A DNA stretch of 40,937 nucleotides from Gemmataceae bacterium (GCA_035575035.1 DATLYH010000335.1:1-40937), one strand, 5' to 3'; counted from the stretch's first letter, positions 6,784 to 40,937 are shown. Notes: generated from the letters alone by a model not told the origin. Numbers and translations are program-made.

Positions 6784-6836
6784 CCGCTTGCAGCTTAGTG
6801 CTCGCCTCGCCGAGGCGAGCACTAAGCTGCAAGCGG
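6784..6836. repeat. near-perfect 53-bp palindrome (26-bp arms) between convergent genes; REP-like / bidirectional terminator-like; member of the GCTAAGCYGCAAGYGG family
   Basis: CCGCTTGCAGCTTAGTGCTCGCCTCG c CGAGGCGAGCACTAAGCTGCAAGCGG read directly. It lies between the stop of the 4147..6774 gene (6774) and the stop of the flotillin gene (6849). Confidence 0.8.
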
Positions 6837-6848
6837 CGAAGAAGATGT

Positions 6849-8618
6849 TCACCCCTTGGGCGGCGGCGCGTCGGATTCGTCCTTGGCTGTCGCAACCACC
6901 TGGGGGCCGTCATGGTGCTCCGGCGAGGTCGGGGCAGCCGACCGGCCCTCCGGGGCGAAGCGGGCCAAATACTCGGGCATCTCGATGCCGCCGATGTCCT
7001 TCATCACCTGCATCATCGGCGGCAGCACTCGGGCCATGCTCTGCAAGAAGTGGGCGGTGCTGGTCGTACCGTTGCCGTTGGCCCCGCCCCCTTCCCAGAC
7101 GACCACCTTGTCGAACTTGATGTTGGAGATGGCCTGGGCCGCCGTCTGGGCCAGGGTATCGAGGTGCTCCAGCATCAGCATCTGGAAGGCCTGGGAAGCG
7201 CCGCCGCAGGCCTCGATGATCCGCCGCAGGCCTTCCCCCTTCTTGGCCAGGATCTCATACTGGCCGCGGGCCTCGGCCTCGAGCTTGGCGTAGATGGCCT
7301 GGGCCTGGCCCTCCGCCTCGATACGGCGTTTTTCGGCTTCGGCTTCGGCCTCGACGATGATCTTAGCCTTCTCCGCCTTGGCCGGCGCTTCCAACGCCGC
7401 CCGCCGCTCCGCCTCGACGCGCTCGGCCTGGGCCAGAGCGGCCTTGGTCAGGGCGCGGTTCTGCGCCTCCTGCACGGCGGCCTCGGCCTCGCGCTTGCGG
7501 GTCTCGCCGAGCTGGTACGCCTCGGCCTGTTTGACCTGGAGCTGGGCCTGGGCCAGGGCGATCTTGGCCTGGGCCTCGGCCTCGCCGGCGACCGCCTTGG
7601 CGTTGGCCTCGGCAATGGCGATGCGCATCTGCCGCTCGGCGTCCTTGACCTGGGCCTCGCGCTCGAAAGCCGCGGTCTGCTCGCCGACCTTCTGCTCCTT
7701 TTCCAGCTGAGCGATGCGGACCGCCTGCTGTCGCTGGACTTCCTTGATCTGGGCCTCGCGCTCCATCGCCGCCGTCTGTTCGCCGACCTTCTGTTCCTTT
7801 TCCAACTGGGCAATGCGGACCGTCTGGTCGCGCAGGGCCTCGCGGGTGCCGATCTCGCGCACCTTGACGGCGTTGGCCACCTGGATGGCCTTCTCACGCT
7901 CGGCCTCGGCGACGCCGATCTGGCCGAGCTTCTCCTGCTCGGCCACCTCGACCTTGGCTTTCTGGACCGCCTGGCTGGCGGCCTTGCGGCCGATGGCCTC
8001 GATGTAGCCCGACTCGTCGGTGATGTCGGTGATGTTGACGTTGATCAGCACCAGGCCGATCTTCTTCAGCTCCGGCTCCAACGATGTCTGGATGTTGTGC
8101 AGAAACTTGTCGCGGTCGCGGTTGATCTCCTCGATGTGCATCGAGGCGATCACCTGGCGGAGTTGGCCGAAGATGATGTCGCCGGCCTGCTGCTTGATCT
8201 CGTCCGTGCTCAAGTGGAGCAGGCGGATGGCGGCATTGTTCATCGTCTCGGGGTCGGTGCCGATGCCGACGGTGAAGACGCTGGGGACGTTGACGCGGAT
8301 GTTCTCGGCCGACAGGGCCCCTTTGAGGGGGATCTCGATCTGGATCGGTTCCAGACTGAGATAGGCGTATTCCTGGATGAGCGGCCAGACGAAGGCCGCT
8401 CCGCCGTGAATGGGCCGCGACGCCATGCCGCCGCCCACCTTGCCGGAGATGACCAGGATCTGGTCGGGCCGGCACCGCTTGTAGCGGTTCATGAGCAGCA
8501 GCAGAAAACTGAAGAAGACGAGGGCCAGGAAGACCGGCACCAGCACCAGCCAGGGGAAATCGAAATCGGACGCGGGCGCCCCGGGCCGGCCCTGGGCAAG
8601 CAACAAGGTGTTAAGCAT
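6849..8618 (-). CDS. flotillin (SPFH/band-7 family, FloT/YqiK-like) with long coiled-coil (EA-rich) region
   Basis: N-terminal TM, then an SPFH domain (PDQILVISG...RPIHGGAAFVWPLIQEYAYLSLEPIQIEIPLKGALSAENIRVNV...IGTDPE), followed by about 250 aa of E/A/K/Q heptad-like repeats. Its ATG at 8616-8618 overlaps the stop of the upstream NfeD gene. Confidence 0.85.
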   Translation of the reverse strand: MLNTLLLAQGRPGAPASDFDFPWLVLVPVFLALVFFSFLLLLMNRYKRCRPDQILVISGKVGGGMASRPIHGGAAFVWPLIQEYAYLSLEPIQIEIPLKGALSAENIRVNVPSVFTVGIGTDPETMNNAAIRLLHLSTDEIKQQAGDIIFGQLRQVIASMHIEEINRDRDKFLHNIQTSLEPELKKIGLVLINVNITDITDESGYIEAIGRKAASQAVQKAKVEVAEQEKLGQIGVAEAEREKAIQVANAVKVREIGTREALRDQTVRIAQLEKEQKVGEQTAAMEREAQIKEVQRQQAVRIAQLEKEQKVGEQTAAFEREAQVKDAERQMRIAIAEANAKAVAGEAEAQAKIALAQAQLQVKQAEAYQLGETRKREAEAAVQEAQNRALTKAALAQAERVEAERRAALEAPAKAEKAKIIVEAEAEAEKRRIEAEGQAQAIYAKLEAEARGQYEILAKKGEGLRRIIEACGGASQAFQMLMLEHLDTLAQTAAQAISNIKFDKVVVWEGGGANGNGTTSTAHFLQSMARVLPPMMQVMKDIGGIEMPEYLARFAPEGRSAAPTSPEHHDGPQVVATAKDESDAPPPKG

Positions 8619-15248: not shown

Positions 15249-15359
15249 GGAAGAGGACGCCATGAGGCCGAATCCGATGCACCCTCAAGCAATTCCCCAT
15301 CGTCGGCTGCTCCACCACCATGCTATCGGAGGCTCTCTAGTGCCGTCGATGCCGGCCTA
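15249..15359 (+). repeat. copy 1 of a ~110-bp dispersed direct repeat (second copy at 23147..23256, ~97% identical)
   Basis: GGAAGAGGACGCCATGAGGCCGAATCCGATGCACCCTCAAGCAATTCCCCATCGTCGGCTGCTCCACCACCATGCTATCGGAGGCTCTCTAGTGCCGTCGATGCCGGCCTA. It differs from copy 2 by 3 substitutions. Confidence 0.9.
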
Positions 15360-22921: not shown

Positions 22922-23146
22922 TCCTGCGAACGCTGTACTTAGCCCGCGGCCAGCTGCGCGCCGAACCGGCGCCGGTACTCCGCCAGGACGGCCAGCTTGC
23001 ACAGCCACTTGTACCACCGCGGCAGATGGGGCCAATAGGGGCTTGATTGGATCAACGGATCATCATGCTTGAATATATATGCCTGCATGCGTTGCTGCTT
23101 GGCGCTGCGTCAGTGTGTGCTATCATGAGAAGACCCGGGAGCGTCG

Positions 23147-23256
23147 GAAGAGGACGCCATGAGGCCGAATCCGATGCACCCTCAAGCAATTCCCCATCGT
23201 CGACTGCTCCACCACCGTGCTATCGGGGGCTCTCTAGTGCCGTCGATGCCGGCCTA
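23147..23256 (+). repeat. copy 2 of the ~110-bp dispersed direct repeat (see 15249..15359)
   Basis: Near-identical sequence. It is preceded by an AT-richer stretch (23040-23146) and followed by TTTTAGTTTGG. Confidence 0.9.
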
Positions 23257-23858: not shown

Positions 23859-24207
23859 AGTAGGCTCCTATCGTGATGGCCCGCAATGGGGCCGAGCTTA
23901 ACTCTACCTCGGCCAACTTCCTCGTTCGGGATCGGCATCAGCCTGCGCCGAATCGTGGACAGCGGGCAGGGCTGGCCGAGGGTCATCCCCTGCCCGAAAA
24001 AAGAACGTTCGCCGGACCTGAACTTGCGCGGACAGCACAGATGGGGTTGGAACAGCATGGCAGGTCGCAGGATCCTGCCGCAGAGCCCGAAGCGTCCGCG
24101 ACGGGTTGACGGTGCCCGTCGCGGACGTTCCAGGCTCGTAGGAACATCGACCCGTCGCGGACGTTCCGGGCTCTGACAGTACACGCTCCGGGCTCGGACC
24201 CAGGCGC

Positions 24208-31799: not shown

Positions 31800-31909
31800 G
31801 TAGCTTGATGTTGGGCTTCCCACGGAAAGTACAGAGGTTTCTCCACTACACGTGGCTTCACTCTCATGCCATGTAGCTTGATGTTGGGCTTCCCACGGAA
31901 AGTACAGAG
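31800..31909. repeat. two copies of a 37-bp direct repeat (GTAGCTTGATGTTGGGCTTCCCACGGAAAGTACAGAG) separated by a 36-bp unique spacer, upstream of the adh promoter
   Basis: Copies at 31800-31836 and 31873-31909, exact. Each contains a small CTTCC-cac-GGAAG hairpin. Confidence 0.85.
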
Positions 31910-35859: not shown

Positions 35860-35862
35860 TCA

Positions 35863-35917
35863 GAGCCGCGAGCGTCAGCGAGCGTTGAGACGCCCCGCTC
35901 GCTGACGCTCGCGGCTC
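35863..35917 (+). other. perfect 22-bp-stem RNA hairpin in the 76-nt spacer between the HemN-like and gcvH-like genes (no U-tract)
   Basis: GAGCCGCGAGCGTCAGCGAGCG-ttgagacgccc-CGCTCGCTGACGCTCGCGGCTC. The stop of the upstream gene is at 35859 and the start of the downstream gene at 35936. Confidence 0.8.
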
Positions 35918-35935
35918 GGACACGGTCTGCACCGA

Positions 35936-36406: not shown

Positions 36407-37480
36407 ATGAGCCGTCACCGCCTCACCGTCGTGCTGTCACAGGCCCCGGGCAAGAATCCGACCAAGCGGGCGCTGGAGGAAAGCATCGTCGCCGCCCTGA
36501 TCACCGAGCCGGGGTTGGATGTGTCGGTCGTTCCCTACCTCTACGACCTGGACGCCAACCATACCGGCCGACTGTTCCTGGAGTCGATCACCGGCGACAT
36601 GGTGGTGCTGGCCTGGATGTTTCCGCGGGCAGCGTTCTGGGTCCTGGACCGCGACGGCATCAAGGGACACTTCGGCGAGAGCCGCCTCAAGCCGCCCGCC
36701 GCCGATGATGACGAGGAAGACGGTGAGCCCGAGCCGCCCCGGGGCATTGGCTCTGTCAATGTGCCGGACCGGTACATTTACTGCCTCGACCTGCGCGACT
36801 TCGCCAGCCATGAGCCTTATGTCCAGGAAGTTCGGCGGATCGCCGAGGAGTGCCGGCAGCGGTACGAAGCGAAGCAGCGGGAGCGGGCCCAAGCCAACCC
36901 GCCGCTGGTGCAGCTGGGCCTCTCGGTGCGGGCCGACGAGCCCCCCTCACCCCCACCCCTCTCCCCCGCGGCGGGGGAGAGGGGGAGGGGTGAGGGGGCG
37001 CCGCATTTCAAGCCCGAGGATCTGCTGAAGCCGCCGGAGCGCCGCTGGTATCCGGTTATCGACTACAGCCGCTGCACCAATTGCATGGAGTGCATCGATT
37101 TTTGCCTGTTCGGCGTCTACGGCGTGGATCAATTCGACCGAATCTTCGTCGAGAATCAGGACAACTGCAAGCGCGGCTGTCCAGCGTGCAGCCGGGTCTG
37201 TCCCGAGCATGCCATCATGTTCCCCGACTACAAGACGCCGGCCATCGCGGGGGCGCCGGTCGGCGGCATCAGCGGGTTGAAGATCGACCTGACGAAGCTG
37301 TTCGGCGGCGATGACGCCATCAAGATCGCCGCCGCCGAGCGCGACCGCGAGCTGATCAAGGACGGCCGGCAGGCAGTCGGCCTGACGGTCGGCATCCCCA
37401 AGCGCCAGGCCGCCAAGCCGCAGCAGCCGAAGGATGATCTGGACAAGCTGGTGGACTCCCTGGACGCGCTGGATATTTGA
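36407..37480 (+). CDS. two-domain protein: N-terminal domain of unknown function + C-terminal 2x[4Fe-4S] ferredoxin-like domain; contains an in-frame GC-rich palindromic element in the linker
   Basis: CTNCMECIDFC (CxxCxxCxxxC) and CKRGCPACSRVCP (CxxxCxxCxxxCP). The linker ...ADEPPSPPPLSPAAGERGRGEGAP... is encoded by the palindrome at 36943-36998. Confidence 0.6.
   Translation: MSRHRLTVVLSQAPGKNPTKRALEESIVAALITEPGLDVSVVPYLYDLDANHTGRLFLESITGDMVVLAWMFPRAAFWVLDRDGIKGHFGESRLKPPAADDDEEDGEPEPPRGIGSVNVPDRYIYCLDLRDFASHEPYVQEVRRIAEECRQRYEAKQRERAQANPPLVQLGLSVRADEPPSPPPLSPAAGERGRGEGAPHFKPEDLLKPPERRWYPVIDYSRCTNCMECIDFCLFGVYGVDQFDRIFVENQDNCKRGCPACSRVCPEHAIMFPDYKTPAIAGAPVGGISGLKIDLTKLFGGDDAIKIAAAERDRELIKDGRQAVGLTVGIPKRQAAKPQQPKDDLDKLVDSLDALDI
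36943..36998. repeat. GC-rich palindromic element, copy A: CCCCTCACCCCCACCCCTCTCCCCC-gcggc-GGGGGAGAGGGGGAGGGGTGAGGGG. Four G-tracts give G-quadruplex potential. It lies in-frame inside a CDS.
   Basis: 25-nt arms are reverse complements with 2 mismatches. The right arm has a G5-N3-G5-N1-G4-N3-G5 pattern. Confidence 0.85.
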
Positions 37481-40375: not shown

Positions 40376-40937
40376 TCAAGCGGACTCCAGATAGCGCTGC
40401 CGCTCCCAGTCGGTCACCGCCGTTCGGAACAACTCCCATTCCCGGCGGGCCATCTCGACCAGGTGCCGCGCCAGGACCGGGCCGAGCGCCTCTTGCAGCA
40501 CCGTGTCGGCCTCGAACGCAGCGATCCCTTCGGGCAGGGTCCGCGGCAGTGCAGTGCCCCGGACGTAGGCGTCGCCGTCAGTGCGCCCCGGCGGCATCAG
40601 GCGGCGGCGCAGACCATCGAGCGCCGCCGCGGCGCAGCCGGCCAGCAACAGGTAGGGGTTGGCATCAGCGGCGCCGCCCCGGTACTCCAGCCGCCGCTCC
40701 GGCCCGTGCCCCAACACGCGCACCGCTGCCGTGCGATTGTCCACGCCCCAGGTCGCCGTCGTCGGCGCGAACGAGTGCTCGACCAGCCGCTTGTACCCAT
40801 TGACGGTGGTGGATGAAAGGAAGATCAGGCCGGGGAGATGGGCCAGCAGCCCCGCCAGGCAGTGCTCCATCAGCCGGTTGCCGAGTGGGCTATCGCCCCC
40901 CTCACCCCCGACCCCTCTCCCCCCGAGGGGGGAGAGG
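40376..40937 (-). CDS. glutamine synthetase family protein, C-terminal catalytic part only (gene continues beyond window end); contains copy B of the GC-rich palindromic element in-frame
   Basis: IFLSSTTVNGYKRLVEHSFAPTTATWGVDNRTAAVRV...EYRGGAADANPYLLLAG matches GS catalytic-domain C-terminal motifs. The frame stays open upstream through 40937 and encodes ...GGRGVGGEGGDSPLGNRLMEHC.... Confidence 0.75.
   Translation of the reverse strand, partial: LSPLGGRGVGGEGGDSPLGNRLMEHCLAGLLAHLPGLIFLSSTTVNGYKRLVEHSFAPTTATWGVDNRTAAVRVLGHGPERRLEYRGGAADANPYLLLAGCAAAALDGLRRRLMPPGRTDGDAYVRGTALPRTLPEGIAAFEADTVLQEALGPVLARHLVEMARREWELFRTAVTDWERQRYLESA
40896..40937. repeat. GC-rich palindromic element, copy B (truncated by window end): CCCCTCACCCCCGACCCCTCTCCCCCC-gagg-GGGGAGAGG...
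   Basis: The left arm is identical to copy A apart from a 1-nt indel. It lies inside the open reading frame of the GS-like gene on the minus strand. Confidence 0.8.

Follow-up and report, generated by a model that had tools for sequence, protein, structure and literature searches.

The BoxC, PIT or triplex-motif (TM) repeats are short (about 36–50 nt), non-coding, GC-rich sequences interspersed in bacterial genomes, and to our knowledge no enzyme that mobilises them is known. The class was described by Bachellier in the 1990s, by Hoyne and Maher in 2000 and by Holder et al. (NAR 2015; PMC4666352), the last of these papers having been found by a full-text search for the two G-blocks of the repeat considered here. 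BoxC was the first name and PIT element a later one, while the term 'TMECO' was given to 23 sequences of E. coli K-12, of which CCCTCTCCCTGTGGGAGAGGGCCGGGGTGAGGGC is an example (PMC4666352). These sequences form an intrastrand purine-motif triplex in vitro, the demonstration in vivo being lacking, and the family has shown neither promoter nor terminator activity in published tests, is not linked to transposons, phages or plasmids and is associated with local genomic variability or instability in E. coli (PMC4666352). All 23 K-12 copies are intergenic ('always located intergenically'), a count over 262 proteobacterial genomes gave 3610 occurrences of the repeat, and cyanobacteria have related G/C-rich motifs in abundance (PMC4666352).

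Two further systems are close to the locus described below. The RPEs (Ogata et al. 2000, 2002) are, in the passages devoted to them in PMC10969869 and PMC3733652, small palindromes found in frame within genes that still look functional; they are there described as AT-rich, about 100–150 bp long and restricted to Rickettsia, with nearly half of the copies intragenic in some families. The REP elements (GTAG- or CGTC-tagged, the REPIN/RAYT system) are short GC-rich hairpins that are mostly extragenic, with a minority located in the linkers and loops of genes (Di Nocera et al. 2013, PMC3733652), and they are present in Planctomycetes too (PMC3733652).

The repeat that we call copy B (40896–40937, minus strand) forms the final 42 bases of a Gemmataceae contig of 40937 bp; the whole of this contig was analysed and is referred to as the window. 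The last 43 bases (40895–40937) read GCCCCCCTCACCCCCGACCCCTCTCCCCCCGAGGGGGGAGAGG. On the plus strand the repeat consists of a C1 block (CCCCCCTCACCCCC, 40896–40909), a GA spacer (40910–40911), a C2 block (CCCCTCTCCCCCC, 40912–40924), a GA loop (40925–40926) and a G2 block (GGGGGGAGAGG, 40927–40937) that is cut by the contig end. The opposite strand, which is the sense strand of the glutamine synthetase (GS) family gene discussed below, reads CCTCTCCCCCC-TC-GGGGGGAGAGGGG-TC-GGGGGTGAGGGGGG, i.e., a C-stem, TC, a first G-stem, TC and a second G-stem, and is thus a near-complete three-block C-G-G unit.

The architecture of copy B is the one found in TMECO: a C-stem CCCCTCTCCCC, a loop, the complementary G-stem GGGGAGAGGGG, a short spacer and a G-block GGGGTGAGGGG, and the 9-nt cores of the blocks (CCCTCTCCC / GGGAGAGGG / GGGTGAGGG) are identical to those of TMECO (Table 1 in PMC4666352). 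The succession of a C-stem CCCTCNCCC, a loop, a G-stem GGGNGAGGG, a loop and a second G-stem GGGNGAGGG is present in copy B and also in a second copy on the same contig, copy A. The strict published pattern, CCCTCNCCC N3-6 GGGNGAGGG N3 GGGNGAGGG, matches neither strand of the window and only 7 of the 175 related copies among the matches listed, because the G/C runs here are 4–6 nt long instead of 3 and the second loop has 2 nt instead of 3; the repeat is therefore a variant of the family and not a strict member. Rfam gave no match at its gathering thresholds anywhere in the window. In the other respects that we could compare, the likeness is close: the order of the blocks is the same, the size is similar (~34–45 nt), the loops vary while the stems are conserved, and the repeats, which appear to be multi-copy and interspersed, are at times arranged as inverted pairs or palindromes, devoid of a transposase and present in distant bacterial groups. 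The differences, apart from the run and loop lengths, are the host phylum, which is Planctomycetota here, the compact four-block palindromic form of copy A with the motif on both strands, and the location of both contig copies within translated coding sequences, whereas the K-12 copies are all intergenic. Judged by its sequence, copy B is thus a variant of the BoxC/PIT/TM repeat class and not a new element.

An earlier note on this DNA had described copy B as the same GC-rich palindrome as copy A, placed in the same orientation and truncated by the window edge. The kinship of the two copies stands, since copy B matches the copy A region (36940–36982) directly, without gaps and with 79% identity. 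The inner hairpin of copy B, CCCCTCTCCCCCCGAGGGGGGAGAGG, has a single occurrence in the window against none in 100 dinucleotide-preserving shuffles, which is more than chance would give. The truncation is real as well, the window being the entire public contig. The repeat is GC-rich, but the word palindrome suits copy B poorly, since on the GS sense strand it reads as a near-complete three-block C-G-G motif, the common form of the family. Copy B also matches in inverted orientation, with 73% identity, because copy A is itself palindromic, and the label of a common orientation therefore carries little meaning. The statement that the G-rich arm is the translated one holds for the G-blocks (GGRGVGGEGG), but not exclusively, since the C-stem (LSP) is translated too.

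Copy A (36942–36998) offers an internal control on the same contig. It is a four-block palindrome, C1 C2 G2 G1, of 28 + 1 + 28 nt (57 nt, 19 codons), with arms that are 93% complementary in the inverted-repeat search, blocks that read CCCCTCTCCCCC..GGGGGAGAGGGGG-A-GGGGTGAGGGGG and a triplex-type motif on both strands; in the plus-strand frame it is translated as PPSPPPLSPAAGERGRGEG. As RNA it would fold into a hairpin of −67.6 kcal/mol (z = −6). Its host is a ferredoxin-family gene of 357 aa (36407–37480, plus strand) with Pfam Fer4 domains at aa 214–270, which is full-length in the NCBI annotation of a 100%-identical 'ferredoxin family protein' and has thousands of homologs. In an alignment of 24 orthologs of 74–84% identity the flanks are near-invariant and the inter-domain linker carrying copy A, ~4 kb from copy B, is hypervariable, being almost missing in some orthologs and up to ~50 residues long in others. 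Neither of the two closest orthologous genes has copy A, and the DNA of the window has a net gain of 39 nt (13 codons) relative to them. No target-site duplication is visible at copy A in comparison with the empty orthologous sites, and the left outer block of copy A may be partly native Pro-codon sequence or may be part of the element. Copy A shows the repeat being carried in frame by an intact gene.

TM-type linker peptides are found in 3 of the 120 ortholog clusters of the ferredoxin family (P0062, P0065 and P0115), the frame or orientation differing in each, so that this linker is a site either repeatedly hit or repeatedly tolerated. The DNA of the P0115 linker (L132:2060–2105) is a TM-like variant, CCCCCCACCCCTGACCCCTCCCCCACAAGGGGGGAGGGG. 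Peptides derived from unrelated palindromes were observed in the same linker of P0131 (IEDRGS.../SILDPRS) and of P0119 (AERGAQS...ALGAPRSA), both at alignment columns ~200–250. A preference for Pro-codon (C-rich) targets, hinted at by the alignment around copy A, was discarded, the flanks of nine other intragenic copies giving it no support.

We searched species-representative genomes with the pattern CCCCTCACCCC N0-6 CCCCTCTCCCC N1-12 GGGGAGAGGGG and found the motif in at least 120 genome stretches from many phyla. Among the matches listed, the majority belong to Planctomycetota (Gemmataceae/Gemmatales, Fimbriiglobus, Pirellulaceae and Planctomycetaceae), and the others to Acidobacteriota, several proteobacterial groups, Chloroflexota, Armatimonadota, Myxococcota and further phyla. 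The 175 three-block copies in these listed stretches share one architecture and measure 36–51 nt (mode 39 nt), with TT, CC, CT or TC as the usual second loop; again among the matches listed, 92% of the copies sampled are three-block units and about 8% four-block palindromes. The window holds two copies in 41 kb, and related Gemmataceae MAGs have several loci each among the matches listed (e.g., L069, L072, L093, L097 and L098 in MFD04492.bin.2.10). The flanks of the 175 listed copies show nothing conserved apart from a weak preference for T or C beside the runs, and no target-site duplication is apparent. Among 2.9 million viral contigs only 6 stretches with the motif were found, so carriage by phages is unsupported. 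Three matches came from unexpected hosts for such a GC-rich repeat, namely a 393-nt Streptomyces contig with a coverage of 0.93 (L016), a Ruminococcus MAG (L051) and an Exiguobacterium MAG (L059); these may be contaminant contigs rather than true hosts.

The coding context could be evaluated for 145 copies, these being the loci of other genomes, among the matches listed, that have at least 240 nt on each side. No open frame runs through the region in 110 of them, so most copies are intergenic; in 26 the frame is open and not coding-like, and in nine (~6%) the open frame is accompanied by a coding-like GC3 on either side of the element, which makes them intragenic-like. Pfam placed intragenic copies at aa 230–244 within a GlnE domain (109–353), at aa 111–125 within the DNA_pol3_alpha domain (2–198) of a DnaE-type polymerase, within a WD40 propeller, between PSCyt2 and PSD1, directly after an Hsp70-like ATPase segment and, in an Alcaligenaceae MAG (L048:5933–6898), inside a methyltransferase domain that is split by the element, with FPSPPAPLPQGERGG in frame. 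Upstream of the latter insert a PLGGEGGRRPGEG stretch resembles a second, degenerate copy, which gives the region the look of a paired insertion. Both orientations and several frames are used by the intragenic copies. The motif on the sense strand is typically read as SPLPxGGEGxGVRG or LSPxGGRGxGGEG, and the antisense motif as PPHPxPLSPxGERG, PSPxxPLPxGERG or LTPNPSPKGRGE. The only possible stop codon within the element is a TGA in GGGTGAGGG, and five of the six reading frames are stop-free, because of which an open frame by itself is weak evidence. The real test is the continuity of the frame with conserved domains on both sides, and such continuity is seen in copy A and in the Pfam-verified cases.

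With this distribution in view, the kinship to the other systems may be stated more closely. The element resembles RPEs in being a small in-frame palindromic repeat that adds a peptide segment to tolerant regions of unrelated proteins, this carriage in intact genes being seen for copy A and the Pfam-verified copies while copy B displays its 3′ junction only. It differs from RPEs in its length (42–57 nt), its GC-richness, its unrelated sequence, its Gemmataceae host and its intragenic share, which is roughly 6% of the copies sampled as against nearly half in some RPE families. With REP elements it has in common the short GC-rich hairpin and the mostly extragenic location with some copies in linkers or loops; in contrast to them, both contig copies are without a GTAG or CGTC tag, a third block of triplex or G4 type is present beyond the hairpin, and a RAYT-type gene is absent from the contig. 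Bacterial MITEs are non-autonomous, short and structured and can create in-frame fusions. The repeat, however, lacks terminal inverted repeats that would be separate from its body and is much shorter (36–57 nt), and with conserved flanks and target-site duplications absent around the 175 copies among the matches listed, a MITE reading was rejected.

The gene that hosts copy B is the 3′ part of a GS-family gene on the minus strand (40376–40936), which comprises 186 codons and a stop at 40376–40378 and is cut off by the contig end. Read from 40936, the frame gives LSPLGGRGVGGEGGDSPLGNRLMEHCLAGLLAHLPGLIFLSSTTVNGYKRL... and remains open until that stop. Residues 20–182 of the fragment correspond to positions 174–344 of the 344-position Pfam profile Gln-synt_C (E = 3.7e-44; 151.6 bits against a cutoff of 24), a catalytic domain with the NxYKR, DNR and E-R motifs. 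The fragment is therefore the last half of the catalytic domain, with Gln-synt_N and the first catalytic half beyond the contig. Partial NCBIfam matches were obtained to type III GS, PuuA (gamma-glutamylputrescine synthetase) and GlnA, and a 100%-identical NCBI protein is annotated as 'glutamine synthetase, partial'. GS chains from the PDB align from query residue 17–20 and chain residue ~265–307 onward, the query position corresponding to ~265 of Bacillus subtilis GS; because the structures align only from there, ~260–300 N-terminal residues are missing. The native part of the gene has gene-like codon-position GC values (GC1/2/3 = 0.74/0.54/0.87), and in an alignment with 11 homologs all invariant columns are kept. 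What the earlier note had proposed for this gene was borne out in part: copy B lies inside the coding sequence of a minus-strand GS-family gene, its visible part leaves the frame open into conserved GS motifs, the peptide quoted is reproduced exactly, and the first ~15–19 residues are left unaligned by the profiles and structures, as an insert would be. The conclusion of the note that the insertion neither disrupted nor frameshifted the gene goes further than the 3′ junction, the one within the contig, allows.

Translated in the GS frame, copy B gives LSPLGGRGVGGEGG, a Gly/Pro-rich stretch of about 14–19 residues, and the native sequence restarts at D15-SPLGNRLMEH. In the homolog alignment the residues encoded by the element fall into the loop between the HxHxSLW..DG strand and the 'LSPLG..flaGLLaH' helix, a loop that shows large length differences among homologs. 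The protein cluster search placed this GS in a cluster with one member from one contig, the gene being absent from other assemblies, and its nearest relatives are at most 49% identical, except for one 107-aa fragment at 67%. None of the 60 other GS homologs retrieved has a TM-type peptide (1 of 61 if the host of copy B is included). The orthologous GS gene was not reached through the synteny of the ferredoxin-family neighbour either: the P0063 contigs stop ~250 nt after the ferredoxin gene, and in the P0070 genome different genes, with no orthologous GS, lie downstream of the ferredoxin-family ortholog. As a close ortholog for an empty-site comparison is absent, we infer the insertion into the GS gene from the behaviour of the family. 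The gene presumably continues intact upstream of copy B, the visible junction being the 3′ one alone.

The most probable explanation, which we favour with reasonable confidence, is that copy B is a passenger repeat of the BoxC/triplex-motif type, residing in a stop-free frame within an insertion-tolerant loop of GS, translated with it and coinciding with an assembly break. According to this explanation a copy of the TM class would have lodged in the length-variable loop; being in a stop-free frame, it would be read as a flexible Gly/Pro-rich stretch and would be kept as a tolerated passenger. Its persistence would be due to the fact that five of six frames are free of stops, that the peptide is hydrophilic and flexible and that the site already tolerates indels; the peptide itself is presumably neutral. 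That such in-frame carriage occurs is evident from the intact gene located 4 kb away and from at least six Pfam-verified genes elsewhere.

The alternative that survives best, although we consider it unlikely, is that the GS gene is a truncated pseudogene of which only the C-terminal 170 residues remain, the repeat marking the breakpoint of a rearrangement or a deletion. The link of the BoxC/TM family with local genomic instability in E. coli (PMC4666352) would suit such an origin, as would the internal ATG-initiated ORF of 164 aa and the absence of close orthologs from the databases, and the contig, which stops at copy B, holds nothing that contradicts a truncation. The frame, however, stays open through copy B instead of ending there, the GC3 is strongly coding, the invariant and catalytic-region residues are intact, and copy A together with the at least six Pfam-verified copies elsewhere lies in frame in intact genes.

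It is distinctly improbable that copy B is functional and maintained by selection, either by pausing translation through an mRNA hairpin or G-quadruplex or as an exapted loop that changes the regulation or the oligomer contacts of GS. The predicted RNA structure is indeed very stable, the visible part of copy B giving a 10-bp GC hairpin with a total of −37.2 kcal/mol in the hairpin energy calculation. The minus strand of copy B matches the G-quadruplex consensus, the G-arm of each contig copy fits it, and TM copies account for three of the seven consensus matches in 41 kb; elements of the TM type also occur repeatedly in the one ferredoxin-family linker. Against a selected function, the copies are not conserved across orthologs (one of 61 GS proteins; three independent and differently framed copies in the 120 ferredoxin orthologs), the host proteins are functionally unrelated, both orientations and several frames are used, and the published tests mentioned above revealed no promoter or terminator activity for the family (PMC4666352).

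The contig stops inside copy B, and the position of the repeat right at the terminus of a contig from a short-read MAG invites the suspicion that it is an assembly artefact, i.e., a chimeric join or a palindrome fold-back, with the real GS gene lacking the element. The enrichment of TM copies near contig ends would fit this: 14 of the 175 copies among the matches listed, roughly 6–7 times a rough expectation, have a true contig end no more than 150 nt away, in most cases no more than 60 nt. The junction, however, lies 42 nt from the contig end and passes without a break into unique GS sequence, and copy B possesses the full three-block structure typical of genuine copies, so that we regard an artefact as very improbable. 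A fold-back in particular was rejected, since the terminal palindrome has only 24 nt and is far shorter than assembly k-mers. Typical final assembly k-mers are longer than the 44-nt repeat, and for this reason repetitiveness alone is insufficient to break the contig; a drop in coverage or read quality at a structure of extreme GC content is the likelier cause. It is thus likely that the very stable, GC-rich hairpin-, triplex- or G4-prone structure is the reason why the short-read assembly stops here, and the numbers for the listed copies suggest that triplex-motif repeats systematically break short-read MAG assemblies. Finally, the idea that copy B is a locally evolved, low-complexity Gly-rich coding stretch with a chance likeness to copy A, to which the natural variability of the GS loop, the tendency of GC-rich genomes to generate Gly/Pro-rich low-complexity sequence and the succession of an element-encoded SPLG and a native SPLG might lead, is hardly credible in the face of the identity, block by block, with a repeat that at least 120 genome stretches share, the absence of chance matches in the shuffles, and a perfect 10-bp GC hairpin and C-G-G block order that would not be expected of such a stretch.

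The BoxC/triplex-motif class, described as strictly intergenic in E. coli, is thus present with longer runs in Planctomycetota and further phyla, and a minority of its copies lie in frame within conserved proteins, on this contig a GS-family enzyme and a ferredoxin-family protein. The repeat class itself is already known, as are in-frame small palindromes in the RPEs of Rickettsia and in tagged REPs; intragenic REP and RPE copies are established precedents, and the current understanding is not overturned. New are the variant with longer runs, found in Planctomycetota and other phyla, the intragenic occurrence of a compact four-block palindrome and the translated copies of a family described as strictly intergenic. 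Peptides of the SPLPxGGEGxGVRG or PPHPxPLSPxGERG type in annotated proteins are accordingly to be read as repeat-derived inserts and not as features of the protein families. Because triplex-motif repeats coincide with contig ends, the genes that carry them will tend to be reported as 'partial' in short-read MAGs, and the repeats provide a natural map of insertion-tolerant loops. A much broader view, that BoxC/TM repeats, in the manner of RPEs, supply in-frame Pro/Gly-rich inserts to loops and linkers throughout the bacteria, being especially active in Planctomycetota and landing repeatedly in the same tolerant linkers (three times independently in one ferredoxin-family linker), and that some translated copies, such as the one in the GS loop, might have been recruited to serve as flexible loops or, between folding units, as mRNA hairpin/G4 pause sites, is offered here as a speculation to which we give little weight.

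By its gene content the contig is an ordinary piece of a Gemmataceae chromosome: it encodes a Ser/Thr kinase, RmlD, GroES, an SPFH protein, GlmS, a BBP7 porin, MoxR, LeuRS, an Fe-ADH, a HemN-like radical SAM protein, a GcvH-like protein, the ferredoxin-family protein, an antitoxin-like ORF, another radical SAM protein, HemC and the GS fragment, and none of its 24 coding-like ORFs has a transposase or RAYT domain. Several other repeats were observed in it. An exact 37-nt direct repeat, GTAGCTTGATGTTGGGCTTCCCACGGAAAGTACAGAG, is located at 31800–31836 and 31873–31909 in an AT-richer intergenic stretch, the two copies being separated by a 36-nt spacer; the geometry of 31800–31909 is CRISPR-like, but there are only two copies. 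Three intergenic, GC-rich palindromes have no relation to the triplex-motif repeat, one with perfect 26-nt arms (6784–6836), one with 29-nt arms of 90% and a third partial copy between the arms (24081–24175) and one with 25-nt arms of 96% (35860–35920); they look like a different REP-like family or terminators. A 111-nt direct repeat of 97% identity is present at 15249–15359 and 23146–23256, 7.9 kb apart, one copy adjoining an ORF fragment that has HsdM_N only, and the minus-strand SPFH/Band 7 gene has, in its C-terminal part, a tandem 99-nt (33-codon) repeat of 85% identity (7629–7826).
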